From Verrucomicrobiota bacterium (GTDB lineage Bacteria > Verrucomicrobiota > Verrucomicrobiia > Limisphaerales > JAEYXS01), in the NCBI GenBank assembly GCA_030834415.1, contig JAURFH010000003.1:1-44665 (forward strand): 44,665 bases of DNA, read 5' to 3'. Under the pieces are notes generated by a model. The model did no database searches. It saw only the letters and a program-made list of their open reading frames with translations, and had not been told where the DNA came from. Made by a program: the position numbers and the translations under genes. Below, piece after piece: positions 2,211 to 10,804 of this stretch (position 1 is the stretch's first letter; each line of letters begins with the position of its first letter).

Positions 2211-3587
2211 ATGCGTATTCAGAACCTGAATCCTGACCGAAACATTGGCGCGAGCTCGTGGTTTGTTGAGTTTGAAAACCACAACCTCTTGCTGGATGCC
2301 GGCACGCACCCCAAGTTCGAGGGCAAAGAATCCCTCCCGCTCTACAATCTTTTGCAAGGCAAGAAGTTGGATGCCATCGCCATCAGCCATTGCCACCATG
2401 ATCACGTCGGCTCCTTGCCTGTCGCTTTAAAGCACTTTCCGGACGCCCACGTGTTGATGACCGAGTTGAGCTATTTCCTCGTGGAACGCGTGCTCCACAA
2501 TTCCGTTAACGTGATGATGCGTCAGAAGGAAGAACTCGGCATCCGCGAATATCCGCTCTTCACGCACGATTACTTGGACGAGATCGCTTCCGTGTTCCAA
2601 GGCTTCAAATACAACCGCGCGATTGAGTGGGCTTCCTTCCAGAAGACCCGCTCGGGCTTCACCTCGCCGACCCTAGAATTTTACGATGCAGGTCACACGC
2701 TCGGCTCTGCTGGCGTCATGGTCCGCGGTGCCAAGGAAACCCTCTTCTTCACCGGTGACGTCTGCTTCCAAGATCAGACCATCCTCAAAGGCGCTCGCTT
2801 CGAGGATATCAAAGCCGATGTGCTCATTCTCGAGACCACGCGCGGTAACCGCGATGTCCCTGCAGGCATGACCCGAGAGACCGAGCTCAAACGCCTTGGT
2901 GAAGCAATCATTAAAGTCCAGGAACGCAAAGGCTCCGTCCTGCTCCCCACCTTTGCCCTTGGCCGCACGCAAGAGATTCTCGCTTTCCTCGCCCTCCTGA
3001 TGAAGGAAGGAAAACTCAAGCACCAGCCCATCTATATCGGTGGTTTAGGCCGCGTGTTCACCGAGATCTACGATTTAGAAGCCCACCGCGCCCATCGCAA
3101 TCACAGCAACCTGCAACTGCGCGAAACGCTCAACCTGAACGTGCTCGACCGGAAACAGATCGATAAGATGAAGAACATCGGCAGCCGCATCTATGTGGTG
3201 ACCGCCGGCATGATGAGCGAGAACACCGCCGCTCACGATCTCGCCATGCGCATGGCTGGCCAGGAAAACGACGCCATCTTCTTTGTCGGTTACGCGGACC
3301 CTGATACCCCCGGTGGCCGTATGCGCGCCGCTCCAAAAGGCGAACCGTTCTTATTCAGCCCCAGCGGCGGCGAACTGACAGTGAACTGCGAATTGGAATC
3401 TTTTGACCTGACCGCTCACGCCAATCGCGATGAACTGTTGGATTTCGTGGGTGAAGTGGAGCCACACACCGTCATCCTCGCCCACGGCGATGACGAATCC
3501 CGCGCTTGGTTCGCCCAAGCCATTAACCAACGCCACCCCAAGATCAAGGTTTTGCAGCCTAGCCCCGGTGAGGCGGTTGAAGTCTGA
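2211..3587 (+). CDS. MBL-fold beta-CASP metallo-hydrolase (CPSF-73/YSH1-like RNase)
   Basis: LDAG, SHCHHDH (HxHxDH), DAGHTLGS, TGD, P-FALGRTQE, GY..P.TPG, AHA and AHGD motifs. Confidence 0.9.
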   Translation: MRIQNLNPDRNIGASSWFVEFENHNLLLDAGTHPKFEGKESLPLYNLLQGKKLDAIAISHCHHDHVGSLPVALKHFPDAHVLMTELSYFLVERVLHNSVNVMMRQKEELGIREYPLFTHDYLDEIASVFQGFKYNRAIEWASFQKTRSGFTSPTLEFYDAGHTLGSAGVMVRGAKETLFFTGDVCFQDQTILKGARFEDIKADVLILETTRGNRDVPAGMTRETELKRLGEAIIKVQERKGSVLLPTFALGRTQEILAFLALLMKEGKLKHQPIYIGGLGRVFTEIYDLEAHRAHRNHSNLQLRETLNLNVLDRKQIDKMKNIGSRIYVVTAGMMSENTAAHDLAMRMAGQENDAIFFVGYADPDTPGGRMRAAPKGEPFLFSPSGGELTVNCELESFDLTAHANRDELLDFVGEVEPHTVILAHGDDESRAWFAQAINQRHPKIKVLQPSPGEAVEV

Positions 3588-3726
3588 TTAGAGCCACCCT
3601 ACTTTTCCTATACAAACCGCCGGCCAAAAGCGGGATAGGCAATTTCTGTTGTATCCACAGCAAAAGAGTGCCTTCTAAAACTCTGAACGCTTTGGCAGAT
3701 TACGTGTCATAGTCATCAGCAATTAG

Positions 3727-4251
3727 ATGAAATCCGAGCACCATGCCAAAGACAAACCAGCGCCGAAATGGCGTTTGTGGGTCGTGCTGGCTTTGTTGGT
3801 CGCCCAGATTCCTGGCTTGATACCCCTAGTATGCGCTAGTGTTGCTTGGATTGATGGTGAGCATCGGGTGGAACTTGATTCAGGCAGTGAAGGTTACCAA
3901 CTCGTATTGCACCATGATGCCAATGCTGCTCCTGGCTCAGAGTATTATTATCGGCACCAGCATTGCTTGCTGAGCCGTGCTTTGGTGGCCTTGGCCAATC
4001 CGGACTCCTCCAATACACCCGATCATATCCTGTCTTTTCAGAGTGGTTCCCAAACCGAAAACCTCAGCCAGCTAAAGCTGCTGCCAGAAACCAGCTTGGC
4101 AGCACTGCTGCCGGAGATGGTTTTAGTCGGTGAAGTGGCTCTGGGTGACGAAGCCAAAGCATTGGTCCGCTCGCAACCTCCCTGCTTTAGTCGGCCGCCG
4201 CCCTCAGCTGCCGCCACCGCTTTCATCGGTCAAACGGTTCTCTTGATCTGA
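3727..4251 (+). CDS. His-containing exported/membrane-anchored leader protein upstream of the metal efflux genes (DUF2946/CruR-like architecture)
   Basis: N-terminal hydrophobic segment, His/Cys patches (LHHD, RHQHC, PDH), C-terminal RSQPP..SRPPP followed by a short tail ending TVLLI. Confidence 0.6.
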   Translation: MKSEHHAKDKPAPKWRLWVVLALLVAQIPGLIPLVCASVAWIDGEHRVELDSGSEGYQLVLHHDANAAPGSEYYYRHQHCLLSRALVALANPDSSNTPDHILSFQSGSQTENLSQLKLLPETSLAALLPEMVLVGEVALGDEAKALVRSQPPCFSRPPPSAAATAFIGQTVLLI

Positions 4252-4271
4252 TTCCCCTCCGCTTCTCTACC

Positions 4272-4315
4272 AGCCGGACAGGCATGGTGTTAGCGGGCCC
4301 TCATGTCTTCCGGCT
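4272..4315 (+). promoter_or_regulatory. Intergenic RNA stem-loop between the leader ORF and czcC
   Basis: AGCCGGA-C-AGGCATG ... CATGTCT-TCCGGCT pair (14 bp, one G-U, one bulge) inside a C/pyrimidine-rich 134-nt spacer; no clean U-tract. Confidence 0.55.
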
Positions 4316-4385
4316 TCCTGTTCCTCAGGTGAATCCCTCGCGATTCCCAGCTCCGCAAAAAACTTGAACCATTTCGTTTGCCGGT

Positions 4386-5678
4386 ATGAAAAAACTTTTA
4401 TTGCCACTACTTGGAATCTGCCTGTCCGGGCTGTGTCTCCCCGCCGTTTTTGCAGAGGCTCCGACCACTTCCATCACCACCCTCATCACGGAAGCGGTGA
4501 AAGACAATCCTGAGATCCAATACTACCAAGCAGGGATAACCTCCGCCCAGGCTGGTCTGAAATCAGCCACTCAACTTGCCCAGCCGGAACTGAACGCCGA
4601 ATTGGGCTATAAACACTCTCGCGATAACACCGGCATAAGCGGTGATGGCGTCGCCTGGTCTGTCTCGGTGATGCAAACCTTTGAATGGCCTGGTCGCATG
4701 GGACTGCGCAAAGCCATTGCCAACTACGACATCACTCTCGCCGAACTGGGGCTGGCACAATTCCGCTCCGAACTCGCCAACCGGGTACGCCTGACCGCCT
4801 GGAATCTCTGGGCCGCCCGTCAAAAACTCGATACCGCCCGTACCGTTCAGCAACGTTTCAGCGACCTTCGCGATGTCTTGATCCAACGAGATCCCGCCGG
4901 CATCACCCCCGCCTTGGAACTCCGCGTGATCGAGGCCACCGAACTGATGCTGCGCAAGCGCGTCACCGATGCGGAAGTCACGTTACATTCCCTGCGCACA
5001 GAACTGAACCTGCTCCGGGGCAAACCGGCCGCTGAAGAGATCGCCATCGAAAACGCCGCGGTAGCCTTGCAGACATTGCCACCGCTGGGTGATCTCCTCG
5101 CTCAGGCACGTACCAATAATTTTGAGCTCCTGCTCAAACGCGCCGAACTGGTTCAACAAGGCTTCAAAGTCGATTTGGCCCGCAATGAACGCTACCCGGC
5201 CGTTTCCTTCGGCCCGGTCATGTCCGAGGAACATTCACTGGGTCGCGACCGCATCATCGGCATCGGTCTCACCATGCCGCTGCCCATCTGGCGACGTAAC
5301 GCCGCCAATGTGGACGCTGCCACCGCCCGACGCACCCAGGCAGAGGCCCTGCTGAATGTCACTGTCAGGGATATCGAGCAACGCTTGACGCGTTACTCCC
5401 AATCCTACGCGGCCAGATACGCCGAGATACATCTCTGGGCCGAGAACTCCATCACCGAGTTCGAGAAAGCTGCCGCGCAAGCGGACCGCCATTACCAGCT
5501 CGGAGCCGTCCCGGTCACGACCTATGTAGAGTTGCAGAAACAATACGTAGATGCAGTGGATTCCCTCTTGGACCTACAAGCTGAAGCGATGCAATCCGCC
5601 AGCGAACTGGAACGCGTGACCGGAGCCGAACTCCATCTGGTCAGCATCAAGTCCCCCGTGTCATCAACTCGCAAATAA
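4386..5678 (+). CDS. czcC: TolC-family outer membrane factor (CzcC-like)
   Basis: Signal peptide, A..DNPE motif, Q.FEWPGR, LPIW.RN, Y.LG motifs of OEP repeats; directly upstream of an HME-RND gene. Confidence 0.85.
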   Translation: MKKLLLPLLGICLSGLCLPAVFAEAPTTSITTLITEAVKDNPEIQYYQAGITSAQAGLKSATQLAQPELNAELGYKHSRDNTGISGDGVAWSVSVMQTFEWPGRMGLRKAIANYDITLAELGLAQFRSELANRVRLTAWNLWAARQKLDTARTVQQRFSDLRDVLIQRDPAGITPALELRVIEATELMLRKRVTDAEVTLHSLRTELNLLRGKPAAEEIAIENAAVALQTLPPLGDLLAQARTNNFELLLKRAELVQQGFKVDLARNERYPAVSFGPVMSEEHSLGRDRIIGIGLTMPLPIWRRNAANVDAATARRTQAEALLNVTVRDIEQRLTRYSQSYAARYAEIHLWAENSITEFEKAAAQADRHYQLGAVPVTTYVELQKQYVDAVDSLLDLQAEAMQSASELERVTGAELHLVSIKSPVSSTRK

Positions 5679-5687
5679 GGGAAGACC

Positions 5688-8600
5688 ATGATCGATCGCA
5701 TCCTAGAGTTTTCCCTGCGCCAGCGCGTTTTCGTGCTGCTGGCCACCGCAACATTGCTGGGCGTGGGCATCTACTATGCCCGCGAACTGCCCATCGACGC
5801 CGTACCGGACATCACCAGCCCACAAGTACAGGTCAACACGGAGGTAGATGTATTGGCTCCAGAGGAAGCGGAGAATCTGGTCACCCGGGTCATCGAGCAG
5901 GAACTGGCCGGTCTCCCGGGCGTCACTGATCTGCGTTCGCTGACCAAATACGGACTCTCCCAAGTGACTCTCCAGTTTGAAGATGGTGAGGATATCTACC
6001 GCAGCCGCCAGCTGGTTGCCGAGCGCCTGCAAAATATCCGCCAGCAACTCCCCGCTGGTGCCGAGCCACGGCTGGCGCCGATCAGCACCGGTTTGGGCGA
6101 GATCTTCTATTACACCCTGTCGTGGCAAAAGGGTGCCACCAACCGGCCTCCTGATGAATCCGAGTCCTTGATGCAGCTTTTCGAGGCCCAAGAATACGTG
6201 GCCAAGCCATTCCTGCGCAGCACACCGGGCGTCGCGGAAGTGAACGCCATCGGCGGTCTGGTCAGGCAGTACATCATTGAGCCTGATCCGGAGAAACTTT
6301 TCGCCGCCAACGTCACCTTTGAAGAACTGGCTGAGACCATCAGCCGAAATACCTCCAACGGTGGCGGTGGGATCATCAATCAAGACGGACGCAAGATGAT
6401 CGTCCGCTCCGTGAGCAAGGCCCAGACAGGTGAAGAGCTGGGCGCCCTGCCTGTGAAATTCGCTGGCGGTGTCCGTCCGGTTCTCGTCAAAGACCTGGCC
6501 GCAATACGCATCGGCGCCGCTCCGCGGATGGGTGCCGCCACCTCAAATGGCGAAGAAGCCGTCATCGGCTCGGTGATGATGCTCGCGGGCGAGAACAGCC
6601 GCGTGATCGCCCACCGCGTTCAACAACGTTTACAAACCCTGATCGAACGCCTGCCGCAAGGCATCACCGCCGAAGTGCAGTACGACCGCTCCGATCTCGT
6701 GGACCGCACGGTCGCCACAGTGAAGAAGAACCTGTTTGAGGGCGCCATCTTCGTCGTCGTGGTCCTCCTGTTGCTCTTGGGCAATGTTCGCGCGGCTCTC
6801 ATTGTCGCCGCCGCCATCCCGTTGAGTTTCCTCTGCGCCATCATCGGCATGAACCGCCTCGGCATCTCCGGCAATCTCATGAGTCTGGGTGCAGTGGACT
6901 TCGGTCTGATCATCGATGGTGCCGTGGTGATCGTGGAGAACATCGTCCGTCAGATGGCCCATCGACAGCAGCACTTGGGTCGCGCCCTCACTCATGAGGA
7001 ACGCATGCACACCGTCCTTTCGGCCAGCAAGCAGGTCGCCAGCCCCATGTTCTTCGGCGTCATCATCATCACCATTGTCTACGTGCCCATCCTCGCACTC
7101 ACCGGTGTCGAAGGTAAGATGTTCAAGCCCATGGCCGTCACGGTCATGCTCGCACTCGGTGGAGCGTTAGTCTTGGCGCTCACCCTGATGCCAGCGCTCT
7201 GCTCGTTTCTGCTGCGCGGCAAAGTAAGCGAGAGTGAGAATTTCCTGCTCCGCTTCGCCAAGCGCGTTTACGAGCCCACCTTGAACTGGGTGCTGCGGTG
7301 GCGCTGGCTGGTGTTCGGTGGTGCTTTGGCTCTGTTCCTATTTTCCGTGAACATCTTCAACCGTCTGGGTGCAGAGTTCTCGCCCAAACTCGACGAAGGT
7401 GCGACGACCATGATGCTCTACCGTCCCGTGGGGCAAAGTCTGGAAGCCTCCCTCGCCGCTCAAAAGCAGATCGATCATCTCATCCTGGAAAAATATCCAG
7501 AGGTATCCCGCGTGTTCTCCCGTATCGGCACCGCAGAGGTTGCGACCGACCCGATGGCTCCTAACGAAGCGGATTTCTACGTCTTCTACCATCCCACCAA
7601 AGAGTGGCAGCCGCGCAATGGCCGCGTTCCCACCAAACCCGAGCTGGCTGATATGATCGGCGAGACCATCAAGCAAGGCGCTTTTGAGTGCGATGTCATG
7701 GTCGCCCAGCCGATTGAGATGCGGTTCAACGAGATGTTGGAAGGCATTCGCGCCGATCTCGCCGTCAAAGTGTTCGGGCCAGATTTCGATGTACTCGAGA
7801 AAACCGCCGCCGAGATGAAGACCGTGCTCGAAGGTCTGCCCGGCGCTACCAGCGTGGAGTTTGAGACCGAAGGTCGCCCACCCATCCTTACTCTAGCAGT
7901 AAAACGGGATGAACTGGCCCGGCGCGGCATCAATAGTGACGCCGTGAACGCCGCCCTTGCGACTGCGGTTGCCGGCCAACCGGTCGGCACTCTTCAGCAT
8001 GGTTTGCGGATCCATGATGTCATCGTCCGTTTGCCCGGCGAATTGCGCGAACGAGTGGACCGCATCAAGGAACTTCCCGTCAGGGTGGGAGAATACGGTC
8101 TCTTGAAACTGGGCGATCTCGTCCAGTTCGAGACGATTGAAGCCGTGGAACCCATCCGCCGTGATGATGCCAAACGTCGTGCCGCTCTGATGGTCAATCT
8201 GCGCACCAAGGATATTGAAGGCTGGGTGCGCGATGCCCGCCGCCTCGTGAAGGAAAAGATCACCGTGCCAGATGGATACACCATCGAGTTCGGCGGCCAG
8301 TTTCAACGACTGGAAGCAGCTCGCGCCCGCCTCATGATTGTAGTCCCGGCTGCTCTCACCTTGATCTTCATCCTGATCTTCATGGCCTTCGGCAGTATCC
8401 GCCAAGCCGCCATCGTTTACACTGCTATCCCGCTAGCACTGACTGGCGGCATCTTTGCCTTGTGGTTTCGGGATATGCCCTTCAGCATCACTGCCGCCAT
8501 TGGTTTTATCGCCTTGAGCGGTGTCGCCGTTCTCAATGGTGTCGTTCTGGTCAGTTATTTTAATGAACTGCGCGAACAAACCAGTGATGACGTGAGGACT

Positions 8601-8840
8601 TCCGTGATTGAAGGATCACTGACCCGCCTACGTCCGGTCTTGATGACGGCGATGGTGGCCGCCTTGGGCTTCTTCCCCATGGCCATCAGCACCGGTGCAG
8701 GCGCCGAGGTCCAGCAACCGCTCGCGACCGTCGTCATCGGCGGCATTATCAGCAGCACCTTCCTCACCCTGATCGTCCTCCCCGCCCTTTATTGGACCGT
8801 GGAGCGTGAAAAAAACGCCCCCACCTCCACCAAGAACTAA
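5688..8840 (+). CDS. czcA: CusA/CzcA-family heavy-metal efflux RND transporter
   Basis: 1050 aa; LPIDAVPDIT, PISTGLGEIF, NLMSLGAVDFGLIIDGAVVIVEN (proton-relay D/D/E intact), GVEGKMFKPMA, RLRPVLMTA, GAEVQQPLATVVIGG. Confidence 0.95.
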   Translation: MIDRILEFSLRQRVFVLLATATLLGVGIYYARELPIDAVPDITSPQVQVNTEVDVLAPEEAENLVTRVIEQELAGLPGVTDLRSLTKYGLSQVTLQFEDGEDIYRSRQLVAERLQNIRQQLPAGAEPRLAPISTGLGEIFYYTLSWQKGATNRPPDESESLMQLFEAQEYVAKPFLRSTPGVAEVNAIGGLVRQYIIEPDPEKLFAANVTFEELAETISRNTSNGGGGIINQDGRKMIVRSVSKAQTGEELGALPVKFAGGVRPVLVKDLAAIRIGAAPRMGAATSNGEEAVIGSVMMLAGENSRVIAHRVQQRLQTLIERLPQGITAEVQYDRSDLVDRTVATVKKNLFEGAIFVVVVLLLLLGNVRAALIVAAAIPLSFLCAIIGMNRLGISGNLMSLGAVDFGLIIDGAVVIVENIVRQMAHRQQHLGRALTHEERMHTVLSASKQVASPMFFGVIIITIVYVPILALTGVEGKMFKPMAVTVMLALGGALVLALTLMPALCSFLLRGKVSESENFLLRFAKRVYEPTLNWVLRWRWLVFGGALALFLFSVNIFNRLGAEFSPKLDEGATTMMLYRPVGQSLEASLAAQKQIDHLILEKYPEVSRVFSRIGTAEVATDPMAPNEADFYVFYHPTKEWQPRNGRVPTKPELADMIGETIKQGAFECDVMVAQPIEMRFNEMLEGIRADLAVKVFGPDFDVLEKTAAEMKTVLEGLPGATSVEFETEGRPPILTLAVKRDELARRGINSDAVNAALATAVAGQPVGTLQHGLRIHDVIVRLPGELRERVDRIKELPVRVGEYGLLKLGDLVQFETIEAVEPIRRDDAKRRAALMVNLRTKDIEGWVRDARRLVKEKITVPDGYTIEFGGQFQRLEAARARLMIVVPAALTLIFILIFMAFGSIRQAAIVYTAIPLALTGGIFALWFRDMPFSITAAIGFIALSGVAVLNGVVLVSYFNELREQTSDDVRTSVIEGSLTRLRPVLMTAMVAALGFFPMAISTGAGAEVQQPLATVVIGGIISSTFLTLIVLPALYWTVEREKNAPTSTKN

Positions 8841-8851
8841 GTATTACCATA

Positions 8852-10804
8852 ATGAACTTGATTAAGAAACTTCTCCTTAAGCGACCGCGCCTAGCCATGT
8901 CCTTGGCCAGCGCACTGGTCCTGCTGGTCGCATTTACCATATTACGCATGGCACTGGCGCTCATGTTCCCACCCGCCACACCGGTTTCGGCGGGGGCCTG
9001 GGTGCTCACTTTTATTGTGGGGTTGCATCTGGATGTGGTCATGACCGCCATCCTGCTCCTACCGCTGGCCATCTGGACCACCATGTTGGCTAAGCGCGAT
9101 TGGTCCACTGGCTGGCGGCGTATACTGATGCTCATTGCATTCAGCCTGGGCTGGAGCATCCTGATCTTCAACCTGGCTGCCGAAGGCTTCTTCTTTGAGG
9201 AATTCCAATCGCGCTACAACACCGTGGCCATTGATTATCTCATCTATCCGCATGAAGTGTTCGTCAATATCTGGGAGAGCTACCCAGTGGTTTGGATTGT
9301 TTCTGCGTGCTTGATCGCAGGCATCTCCGTTACCCTATTTATCACCCGTCTGGCCAAACCCGGTTGGTCAACTCCTAAGGATTACCGCGCTGGCATCGGT
9401 TGGGCTCTGGCCGCCGTGGTCTTGGGCTTCAGTGCCGGCCGACAGGAAAGTCATGTCAGCGATGAACGCTCCGTCAATGAACTTGCCGGCAATACGTTCT
9501 CTTCGCTCCTCTACGCCGCCACCACGCGGAATCTCGATTACGCCGCCTTTTATCCCACCATGGAGCGTGATGAGGCATTTCGTCGCGCCAAAAAGATCGT
9601 CCTTAATCCCGGCGAATCCTACACCGGCGGAACCCATGATCTCTGGCGCAAAGTTCCCGGCGATCCGTCTCGCCCCAAGCTCAATGTCTGCCTGTTGCTC
9701 GAGGAAAGTCTCGGCTCTGAGTTTTGGGGCGCTTTGGGACGTAAGGAACCTTCCCTAATGCCACTCATGGACGAAGTGGCCACCAAGGAAGGCTGGCTCT
9801 TTGATAACATCTATGCCGATGGCAACCGCACTATCCGTGGTTACGAAGGTGTCTTCAGCAGCTTCCCGCCATTACCTGGAGATTCCATCGTCGCCCGCGA
9901 CCGCACGGAGAATGTCGAGACCATCGCGCAAGTGCTGGGCCGCGACGGTTACGAGACCATGTTCGTCTATGCCGGCCGCGGGGTGTTTGATGGCACTGGC
10001 AAATTCGCGAAATCCAATGGCTGGAAGAGTTTCTTGGAGCTGAAAGATTTCAAAGAACCCACCTTCACGACCGTCTGGGGCGTATGCAATGAAGACCTCT
10101 ATGATCGTCTGCTCGTGGAGATGCGGGGCTATCACGATGCAGGCAAGCCCTTCCTCATGACCAGCATGTCCGTCTCCAATCACAAGCCCTACACCTATCC
10201 CGCCGGGCGTATCCCCGAGGCCCCGAACCGCACGCGCACGAACGCCGTGAAGTATTCCGACTACGCCCTTGCTCGCTTTTTTGAGCAGGCCAAAAAAGAA
10301 CCGTTCTGGAAAGACACCATCTTCGTGGTCGTGGGCGATCACGGCGCTCGTGTGTATGGCAGCCAAAGCATTCCCATCCGCTCCTATGAAGTGCCCTTCC
10401 TTGTTTTGGGACCCGCCGTAGTCTCCGAGCCGAAACGCACCTCCACACTGGGTTGCCAACTCGACATCATGCCGACAGTTCTGGGCATGATCGGTCGCCC
10501 CTATGAGACATCGTTCTTCGGTCACGACCTGCTCAAGGTGCAACCCGAGCATGAGCGCGTATTACTGAATCATAACCGCTCAGTCGGCATCTATGCCGAC
10601 CAACGACTGGTGGTGTTCAGCCTGAACAAACAGGTGGAGTATTTCACCGGCGATCCCAAAACCGGCCAGATGCAACCGACCACGGTGACAGATGAGAAGA
10701 TGAAAGAACTCGAACTGGATGCCACCGCCTTGTTTCAGGCCGGGGATGATCTCTATATGAACCGCCGCTACACTTACGGTGGCTCGGGCACTAAGGCGCC
10801 TTAG
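8852..10804 (+). CDS. LTA synthase-family (alkaline phosphatase superfamily) membrane sulfatase/phosphotransferase
   Basis: About 5 N-terminal TM helices, then LEES, GNRTIRG (Thr nucleophile), SVSNHKPY, VGDHG and Q.DIMPT motifs. Confidence 0.85.
   Translation: MNLIKKLLLKRPRLAMSLASALVLLVAFTILRMALALMFPPATPVSAGAWVLTFIVGLHLDVVMTAILLLPLAIWTTMLAKRDWSTGWRRILMLIAFSLGWSILIFNLAAEGFFFEEFQSRYNTVAIDYLIYPHEVFVNIWESYPVVWIVSACLIAGISVTLFITRLAKPGWSTPKDYRAGIGWALAAVVLGFSAGRQESHVSDERSVNELAGNTFSSLLYAATTRNLDYAAFYPTMERDEAFRRAKKIVLNPGESYTGGTHDLWRKVPGDPSRPKLNVCLLLEESLGSEFWGALGRKEPSLMPLMDEVATKEGWLFDNIYADGNRTIRGYEGVFSSFPPLPGDSIVARDRTENVETIAQVLGRDGYETMFVYAGRGVFDGTGKFAKSNGWKSFLELKDFKEPTFTTVWGVCNEDLYDRLLVEMRGYHDAGKPFLMTSMSVSNHKPYTYPAGRIPEAPNRTRTNAVKYSDYALARFFEQAKKEPFWKDTIFVVVGDHGARVYGSQSIPIRSYEVPFLVLGPAVVSEPKRTSTLGCQLDIMPTVLGMIGRPYETSFFGHDLLKVQPEHERVLLNHNRSVGIYADQRLVVFSLNKQVEYFTGDPKTGQMQPTTVTDEKMKELELDATALFQAGDDLYMNRRYTYGGSGTKAP

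Follow-up and report, generated by a model that had tools for sequence, protein, structure and literature searches.

What is the small open reading frame (ORF) that stands ahead of a heavy-metal efflux pump in a verrucomicrobial genome, and does it work as a protein or through the act of its own translation? The question is raised by a stretch of 44,665 nucleotides (nt) from a Verrucomicrobiota bacterium (GenBank assembly GCA_030834415.1, contig JAURFH010000003.1, positions 1 to 44,665 of the forward strand; hereafter the window), in which an ORF at 3727–4251 precedes the genes for a czcC-type outer-membrane factor and for a CzcA-family pump of the resistance–nodulation–division (RND) type. 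A first-pass annotation, made from the letters alone, had taken this ORF and an RNA hairpin behind it for a putative metal-sensing ribosome-arrest leader. Known leaders of this kind, CruR and CutF, are described as DUF2946 proteins that are encoded by the first gene of metal operons and carry an export signal and a Cys motif (PMC9426467, PMC9973294). The present ORF proves to be a real gene and belongs to a large family without a name, which we refer to as FAM. Judged from sequence comparisons, it may well encode a CutF/CruR-like, cis-acting co-translational metal sensor, a reading to which we would give not quite an even chance. The gene is organized as follows.

3727..4251, forward strand: FAM gene, unnamed His-rich family, first in the unit (ORF of 174 codons; homologues found)
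3775..3849, forward strand: hydrophobic, putative export or anchor segment, residues 17–41, behind a basic N-terminus (sequence; kept in alignments A1 and A3)
3862..4026, forward strand: core domain with H46, H63, H79, D99 and H100, plus H77 (alignment; AlphaFold2)
4042..4191, forward strand: linker, residues 106–155, variable in sequence and kept in length (alignment; model confidence)
4192..4203, forward strand: RPPP, of which the two central prolines alone are conserved in the family (Pro frequencies; motif counts)
4225..4251, forward strand: C-terminal IGQTVLLI (family consensus LR[ST]TVLLI) and UGA stop (alignment; stop-codon counts)

The reading frame runs from ATG at 3727 to TGA at 4249–4251 and specifies 174 amino acids (aa). 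The N-terminal hydrophobic segment, the His clusters LHHD (residues 61–64), RHQHC (76–80) and PDH (98–100), and the motif RPPP with 15 residues remaining to the end are exactly as the first-pass annotation had described them; RPPP is encoded by CGG CCG CCG CCC at precisely 4192–4203, and SRPPP is preceded by RSQPP. By inspection, the N-terminus (MKSEHHAKDKPAPKWRLW) is basic and leads into about 25 hydrophobic residues, over which AlphaFold2 predicts helices at residues 14–26 and 31–43 (predicted local distance difference test, pLDDT, >90), as expected of an export signal or an N-in/C-out anchor of the CruR/CutF type. Residues 11–110 are modelled with block-mean pLDDT values of 73–95, the core comprising strands 46–53, 56–63 and 100–105 and a helix at 81–89; the linker is modelled as disordered (pLDDT 53–57) and has no consensus residue. 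A CXXC or CxxxC metal motif is absent from the protein, Cys80 being single with no second Cys. Only about 16 residues would lie in the cytoplasm, with no output domain, and in the model the C-terminal tail is not docked on the protein's own domain. A sequence profile search of the PDB gave 0 matches at E ≤ 10 and Foldseek, run with the model against the PDB, none at E ≤ 0.001; a wide structure search with VIA reached at best Z 4.9, for a generic alpha/beta arrangement, and gave no clear structural relative.

Neither Pfam nor NCBIfam assigned a family to the protein or to 18 of its relatives (Pfam at E ≤ 0.1 for the protein and E ≤ 10 for the relatives). A word-indexed protein search returned five close homologues, with 94–41% identity, and a six-frame search found homologues in 15 of 61 related genomes. 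The reach of the family became apparent with a profile of 18 sequences, which recovered 680 of 1.84 billion cluster representatives at E ≤ 0.001, and 426 when the limit was set at E ≤ 1e-10. Of the 680, nearly all are 145–200 aa long, with the alignment reaching the last residue. Within the order to which the window belongs, a profile of 132 sequences detected FAM in 49 of 401 sampled genomes (31 of 166 genera, at most five copies per genome) and in 5 of 401 genomes sampled phylum-wide. Four matching records are assigned to Verrucomicrobiota. Look-alikes in the ESM Atlas are unnamed clusters, mostly labelled Planctomycetota, and one such cluster is 33% DUF6769 (score 0.93). The family is spread through Verrucomicrobiota and probably through other phyla of the Planctomycetota–Verrucomicrobiota–Chlamydiota (PVC) group. 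In one genome (G460) three of the five copies lie within 18 kb of each other (contig C44, 338–356 kb), which suggests repeated use of the module before several operons. No description of the family turned up in the literature searched, where apart from papers on CruR and CutF the matches concerned other topics; the supplement of the CutF survey (File S1, Fig. S6), which may list related His-only clusters, lay outside that search.

What the family preserves was read from an alignment (A3) of the window protein and 131 sequences chosen from 153 proteins by length (140–200 aa) and by the presence of a hydrophobic tail. H46, H63, H79, D99 and H100 are invariant in all 132 sequences, and H77 is found in 128; the column of Cys80, within HQHC, holds Gly in 73 and Cys in 38. 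An alignment had been proposed in the first-pass annotation as a check on the His residues and on R-x-P-P, and it bears out the former, as a set of five His and one Asp. It also bears out the Pro-Pro part of the latter: at reference positions 156–158, Pro reaches 40%, 80% and 71%, against 1–20% in most columns of the linker (with lesser peaks of 22–30% at 119–121 and 55% at 139). Within the last 30 residues, PPP occurs in 56 of the 132 sequences and PP without a third Pro in 47, and PP[PDEGAS] is present in 94 of the tails. The corresponding stretch of 3264 long ORFs of the genome contains PPP in 31 cases (0.95%) and PP in 251 (7.7%), so that the frequencies in FAM (56 and 103 of 132, respectively) exceed what chance would give.

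Beyond the prolines, the proteins end in LR[ST]TVLLI, whose residues are kept in 111 (R), 113 (T), 104 (V), 114 (L), 104 (L) and 104 (I) of the 132 sequences; these counts are inflated because the rows had been pre-selected for a hydrophobic tail. The stop codon behind it is TGA in every FAM gene for which DNA was at hand (31 of 31 and four more, 35 of 35 in all), against 109 of 178 (61%) background long ORFs of the same loci. The 35 genes are not independent, yet they come from more than 20 genera; one weak match of doubtful membership ends in TAA. Together, the octapeptide and UGA are the best conserved C-terminal element of FAM, one to which the first-pass annotation had drawn no attention. 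Distances are preserved as well. H100 is separated from the end of the protein by a median of 69 residues (standard deviation 2.3; 102 of 132 within ±2) and from the last PP by a median of 53 (standard deviation 3.3; 70 of 103 within ±2), so that the spacing between the putative metal motif and the Pro motif is held despite the unconserved linker.

Two simple explanations of this ending were considered and rejected. A sorting signal of the PEP-CTERM type would have a transmembrane segment followed by a basic tail, of which there is no sign, and would be shared by other proteins; a loose pattern for the tail fits 2 of the genome's 34,829 ORFs, the FAM gene among them, and since the motif proper recurs in no other ORF, the tail is not a general sorting signal. 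Insertion of selenocysteine, or read-through, at the UGA codon is contradicted by the in-frame continuation, which is not conserved, and by one locus at which TAG comes directly behind the TGA. A further possibility is envelope signalling, in which a PDZ protease of the periplasm, or another housekeeping partner, would recognize the LLI-COOH end as its ligand or as a degron, so that a tail exposed in response to metal would either send a signal or lead to self-destruction. The downstream genes would be controlled only indirectly in this scheme, with an ordinary promoter or processing site in the spacer. The tail is indeed hydrophobic and always stands at the very C-terminus, with no extension among the tails listed, and CutF is reported to be rapidly degraded once exported (PMC9973294). 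The short cytoplasmic part without output domain, the search of the 134-nt spacer, which revealed no promoter-like site, and the invariance of UGA, which such a scheme does not explain, all speak against it. It also leans on general properties of PDZ proteases, and we consider it quite improbable.

The co-translational reading would run as follows. With a ribosome on the last ~20 codons, the His/Asp domain would already be out on the periplasmic side, the ~50–70 residues between the peptidyl-transferase centre and the last ligand residue corresponding roughly to the capacity of exit tunnel and translocon. Binding of a periplasmic metal to this domain, or its folding, would alter the tension on the nascent chain and thereby change the dwell of the ribosome at Pro-Pro and/or at the terminal octapeptide and UGA. 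What becomes of the structured, C-rich spacer of 134 nt may then depend on whether the 3′ end of the ORF is occupied by a ribosome, the outcomes being read-through as opposed to Rho- or hairpin-dependent attenuation, and/or an opened czcC start region. This outcome would set the level of czcC-czcA expression, in whichever direction. Genes for EF-P and for Rho are present in the genome.

Alternatively, the stall may occur at termination rather than at RPPP. Several observations point to the stop codon as the critical site: UGA is invariant, the octapeptide always stands at the C-terminus and the spacing is tighter to the end of the protein than to PP. On this more specific proposal, PP-x(7-9)-LR[ST]TVLLI (~18 residues) with an obligatory UGA, the codon of RF2, would form a new termination-stage arrest peptide, and a ruler of ~69 residues, spanning exit tunnel and translocon, would tie the arrest to a periplasmic site of five His and one Asp. 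We consider it unlikely in this full form. If it were true, metal sensors that work through a nascent chain across the membrane would have evolved independently in a second class, represented by FAM, spread in Verrucomicrobiota and probably Planctomycetota and heading operons for efflux pumps, outer-membrane barrels, cytochromes and secreted proteins.

Which genes, then, would such a leader control? In the window the FAM gene is followed by two genes.

4386..5678, forward strand: czcC-type outer-membrane factor (PF02321, E 6.4e-36)
5688..8840, forward strand: CzcA/CusA-family heavy-metal RND pump (TIGR00914, 1176.6 bits; PF00873)

Altogether, the downstream gene could be called at 34 loci (this one, 12 and another 21), two more loci ending at a contig edge; only the same strand was searched, for ORFs of at least 100 aa. 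In all 34, FAM stands at the head, upstream of a same-strand ORF. According to Pfam, the gene downstream belongs to OEP and/or RND families at 13 loci, including one (G014) where OEP was recognized by eye against the consensus of alignment A6 and RND by Pfam. It encodes an Ig-like secreted protein (Flg_new_2, He_PIG or DUF7901) at six, a DUF3570 protein at three, an LtaS-like protein of the sulfatase family at two and Dus, some 480 nt away, at another two. Single loci have a multihaem cytochrome, an OmpR-type regulator or a DUF3466 protein, and five have a gene without family. A Sec or YidC gene, such as would be expected behind an arrest peptide of the SecM, VemP, MifM or Apd/Apc kind, was not seen among the called loci. 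Because the genes behind FAM vary so much in kind, a portable regulatory module suits the data better than a dedicated partner protein.

The main rival is that of a stable protein. FAM may be a stable, exported His-rich metal binder, periplasmic or membrane-anchored, that acts as a protein and, like CzcI for CzcCBA or CusF for CusCBA, serves as a buffer, a chaperone or a gate for the flux of metal. We regard this as a serious possibility, if not a probable one. The C-terminal strand would dock on a partner, the linker, by its constant length, would bridge a set distance within the envelope (the periplasm may be about as wide as ~50 residues in extended form) and the upstream position would reflect ordinary co-expression; to this elaboration we give the same weight. 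The confidently folded domain with its six strictly conserved ligand residues agrees with this view, as does the tail, which is conserved at the level of amino acids while synonymous codons vary. In czcC-czcA units without a gene for a membrane-fusion protein, an extra periplasmic component is conceivable. On the other hand, a partner protein is difficult to reconcile with the very different genes that follow FAM, among them those for RND and DUF3570 proteins, Ig-like secreted proteins, a cytochrome and an LtaS-like enzyme. If the protein were merely co-expressed as a partner, the invariant UGA and the long, conserved, C-rich spacer would likewise be unexpected. In addition, the structure searches gave no relative, and in the model the tail stays undocked.

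The pump unit itself has several peculiarities. No membrane-fusion gene adjoins czcC-czcA; such genes lie elsewhere in the genome, at least 13 of them, one beside another CzcA-family pump on contig C108. The idea that FAM could itself be the missing membrane-fusion protein was rejected, as FAM is too small, is disordered past residue 110 and also precedes non-RND genes. The czcC-czcA pair without a CzcB/HlyD gene recurs in G005, G001 and G035, and in G045 a NicO-like gene stands between the czcC-type and the czcA-type gene (loci compared: L027, L028, L030 and L033). The best plasmid relatives of CzcA (from Sphingomonas and Polymorphobacter, 52% identity; L088) have the same TolC-CzcA pair together with a divergent two-component system. 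In the Sphingomonas plasmid a regulator thus adjoins the pair, the two-component system lying just upstream in divergent orientation, a situation in keeping with the idea of FAM as the regulator of the unit in the window.

The flanks of the unit are also of interest. Behind czcA lies a gene for a 650-aa LtaS/EptA-like membrane protein of the sulfatase family (8852–10804), and in two genomes of the same genus, G003 and G007, the FAM gene and its spacer abut an LtaS-like gene directly (L029, 6139–8109, minus strand; L031, 3727–5676). From this arrangement, czcC-czcA resembles a cassette that was gained or lost exactly at the start codon. Upstream of FAM (2211–3587) stands a gene for a beta-CASP metallo-beta-lactamase that has an RMMBL domain, an RNA-processing nuclease of the RNase J/CPSF kind; this gene is syntenic with FAM in G001 and G007.

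Between FAM and czcC lies the region on which any attenuation would have to act.

4252..4385, forward strand: C-rich spacer of 134 nt, kept within the close clade (nucleotide comparison with G005, G001 and G035)
4272..4315, forward strand: hairpin 1, ~13–14 bp with one bulge (−22.4 kcal/mol; kept in 6 genomes)
4328..4348, forward strand: hairpin 2, 7–8 bp (−6.8 kcal/mol)
4222..4240, forward strand: 5′ strand of a tentative long-range helix, over the codons F-I-G-Q-T-V (RNAalifold pairs with 4366–4390)
4366..4390, forward strand: 3′ strand of this tentative helix, covering the czcC AUG at 4386–4388 (RNAalifold)

The C-rich spacer and its 14-bp stem-loop are thus present as the first-pass annotation had it, and the stem-loop is kept with consistent base changes in six genomes. 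The spacer is 35% C and 22% G, and C exceeds G in 20 of 20 FAM spacers, by 9.4 points on average, compared with 4.2 in the gene and 2.0 downstream. Its length is 123–149 nt in 16 of 21 loci, with start codons assigned by eye where MK leads into a signal-like segment. Identity to the window is 76.5% in G005 and 78.7% in G001, both of the same genus, and 67.6% in G035, from another family. The FAM gene has 50–57% identity to the same three relatives, czcC 65–69% and czcA 72–79%, so that within the close clade the spacer is conserved as much as czcA. The element also occurs behind FAM in G003 and, in a divergent form, in G007, where czcC-czcA is absent and the LtaS-like gene comes next; it therefore travels with the FAM ORF and not with the pump.

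Hairpin 1 is more stable than most shuffled versions (z −2.42; 3 of 200 dinucleotide shuffles were as stable), and 11+3 of its pairs are kept in the six genomes, with G-U/G-C and U-A/U-G changes. In hairpin 2, with eight pairs, 95.7% of the cells are paired and one pair is changed on both sides. The long-range helix predicted by RNAalifold from six sequences is interrupted, with 16 pairs of which two are changed on both sides; UUCAU/AUGAA pairs in 6 of 6, although both sides are under other constraints. Over the whole predicted structure, 91.6% of cells are paired, against 36–52% in controls with slid partners. Changes on both sides are seen in three pairs, and 3–20 of 500 shuffles reach the observed measures. 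The covariation that backs the spacer structure, from six related sequences, is thus modest. Whole-spacer z-scores are negative in 13 of 16 cases, with a mean near −1. Single FAM loci carry very strong post-stop hairpins; in one of them (G457, L062) the first 50 nt past the FAM stop form a classic hairpin followed by UUUUUUU before an OEP gene, an intrinsic-terminator-like attenuator unlike the spacer of the window.

Could this RNA by itself be the regulator, riboswitch-like or bound by a protein, with the upstream ORF functionally unrelated? A close-clade spacer conserved like czcA, with two hairpins bearing consistent substitutions, would be in keeping with such a role. A scan of 3550–4500 against Rfam 15 (E ≤ 10), however, returned only three chance-level rows at E 6–9, far below gathering scores, with no metal riboswitch and no match to NiCo/czcD. 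The element is limited to one genus and G035, and pattern scans of metagenome and genome collections found it in the same clade only, at 2 and 4 loci, respectively; the ORF family is far wider. In G003 the element follows the ORF in the absence of czcC. We hold a regulator made of RNA alone to be most improbable.

Several observations weigh against a CutF/CruR-like sensor and have to be set beside the evidence for it. Kinship with DUF2946, to which the first-pass annotation had likened the ORF, is not borne out by sequence: the PF11162 model does not match the FAM protein, a six-frame genome search with it gave only sub-threshold matches elsewhere, and hhalign assigned probabilities of 1.9–2.2% (about 2%) to FAM against seven verrucomicrobial DUF2946 proteins and of 0.25% to alignment A3 against CzcI of pMOL30. 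The Arg of R-x-P-P does not hold either. It precedes PPP in only 27 of 56 cases and RPPP occurs in 28 of 132 sequences, so that Arg is not a family feature and PPP is a minority form of a conserved Pro-Pro; 29 of the 132 members (22%) have no PP at all in the last 30 residues. Moreover, in 50 of the 56 members bearing PPP it lies 13–16 residues before the end, and not within a few residues of the stop, and the best conserved C-terminal element is situated past the prolines, where neither a stall at PPP nor the published mechanism explains it. The N-terminal domain, as modelled, looks confidently folded and is strictly conserved, as expected of a stable functional protein, and CzcI, the positional analogue of FAM, is reported as a periplasmic protein acting on the pump (PMC10127602).

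Other objections come from the RNA. Hairpin 1 is followed by UUCCUGUUCCUC, has no U-tract, was not called by a terminator scan and lies 70 nt ahead of the czcC start codon, so that it qualifies neither as a classic terminator nor as a mask of the start site. The duplex energy of the long-range helix ranks 14th among 70 gene windows, there is no such signal in distant loci, and in most of 20 loci duplexes between the tail and the start region are no better than those of other gene windows. A covariance model of the spacer (R1) found no copy in 31 other loci. Over 33 loci, dinucleotide shuffles give post-stop hairpins just as stable as the best real ones (68 of 132 shuffles as good), hairpins of −15 kcal/mol or below occurring at 12 of 33 loci and in 31 of 132 shuffles.

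If FAM is nevertheless a sensor of the CutF/CruR kind, it would be a second, sequence-unrelated example of the principle, and sensing of extracytoplasmic metals by a nascent, half-exported chain would have an origin outside Proteobacteria, or would there have diverged past any recognizable likeness. Those PVC czcC-czcA pumps that lack an adjacent two-component system would thereby gain a regulator. The invariant features of a family of 680 clusters offer handles to separate ligand site, ruler and arrest element, and to approach arrest at termination. Should FAM turn out to be a stable periplasmic binder instead, it would be a new metal-binding family with a confidently predicted domain and no clear structural relative, located beside an unusual type of pump without an adjacent membrane-fusion gene.

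How does FAM compare with systems already known? TnaC is a termination-stage arrest peptide with a conserved C-terminal peptide, a fixed UGA and key upstream residue(s) ~12–17 back, and it controls a downstream spacer. The analogy with FAM is suggested by the invariant UGA: here too a conserved C-terminal peptide stands at a fixed UGA, with residues ~12–17 back and a spacer downstream. There is no sequence likeness between the two, and TnaC responds to a small molecule in the tunnel, whereas FAM would respond through an exported metal-binding domain far upstream.

CzcI, encoded by czcICBA of Cupriavidus metallidurans pMOL30, resembles FAM as a small exported protein with His and Cys residues encoded directly upstream of czcC. 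Read from its locus, it differs in having 115 aa, the motif CGVCHL, the ending ...ARAPDRPQWQRLA and a spacer of 75 nt, and its operon includes czcB, which the FAM unit lacks. CzcI has been grouped with the CutF-like proteins as cluster 20 of a sequence similarity network (PMC9973294) and is reported to quench the pump as a protein of the periplasm (PMC10127602).

CruR (Bp2923 of Bordetella pertussis, DUF2946/PF11162) shares with FAM the upstream ORF, the export signal (putative in FAM), the conserved distance from metal motif to Pro motif and a long intergenic region, 162 nt compared with 134 nt. Its CXXC and RAPP are 45 residues apart, a spacing conserved to within 1–2 residues, and insertion of five residues breaks regulation; its output is Rho-dependent termination (PMC9426467). 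The C-rich spacer of FAM would be compatible with the same outcome. The differences are equally clear, for FAM is not matched by PF11162 and has no CXXC. RAPP lies 3 residues before the end in CruR (PMC9426467), whereas PP(P) lies 15 residues before the end in FAM, and the gene downstream encodes a TonB-dependent importer in the case of CruR and an efflux pump in that of FAM. True DUF2946 genes are rare in Verrucomicrobiota, with 4 of 201 genomes over the cut-off. The verrucomicrobial proteins (L020–L026) have 115–133 aa and a CxxC, and they end in RAPP or RGPP plus 0–6 residues; at L021 and L026 the following gene encodes a protein of 421–455 aa with a His/Asp-rich N-terminal part and the ending GAHGAH[SD]F.

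CutF, from the cutFOG operon of Rhodobacter capsulatus, provides the closest parallel in design: a small exported protein, first in a metal-homeostasis operon, with a ligand motif in the exported part, PPP close to its end and, ahead of the gene that follows, a structured spacer. Without sequence similarity to FAM, it has CxxxC where FAM has five His and one Asp, 118 aa compared with 160–175, and originates from Pseudomonadota and not from the PVC group. CutF ends PPPRL-stop, two residues past PPP (bioRxiv 10.1101/2025.02.05.636593), whereas in FAM PP stands 15–17 residues from the end and is followed by LR[ST]TVLLI-UGA as an extra invariant ending; at FAM there is also no Shine-Dalgarno sequence to shield. 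A survey of CutF-like proteins required fewer than 150 aa and PP within the last 15 residues (PMC9973294) and would, by these criteria, exclude FAM. The survey names OEP and RND genes as the commonest neighbours and lists His-only clusters (14 and 17, beside HupE/UreJ) as well as CzcI before czcCBA (PMC9973294). A His-only variant governing an RND system in place of a TonB-dependent receptor, which the first-pass annotation had put forward as new, is accordingly in print at the bioinformatic level; what is new here is the FAM family itself and its extra C-terminal module. The likeness to CruR and CutF proposed there stands for the anatomy, that is, the export-like N-terminus, the ligands, Pro-Pro, the spacing and the upstream position, and does not extend to the Pro motif, which is not at the end, or to the tail and UGA, for which it does not account. 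The interpretation is thus partly supported: FAM would take its place beside CutF and CruR among putative metal-sensor genes that lead their operons, as a variant unrelated to both in sequence.

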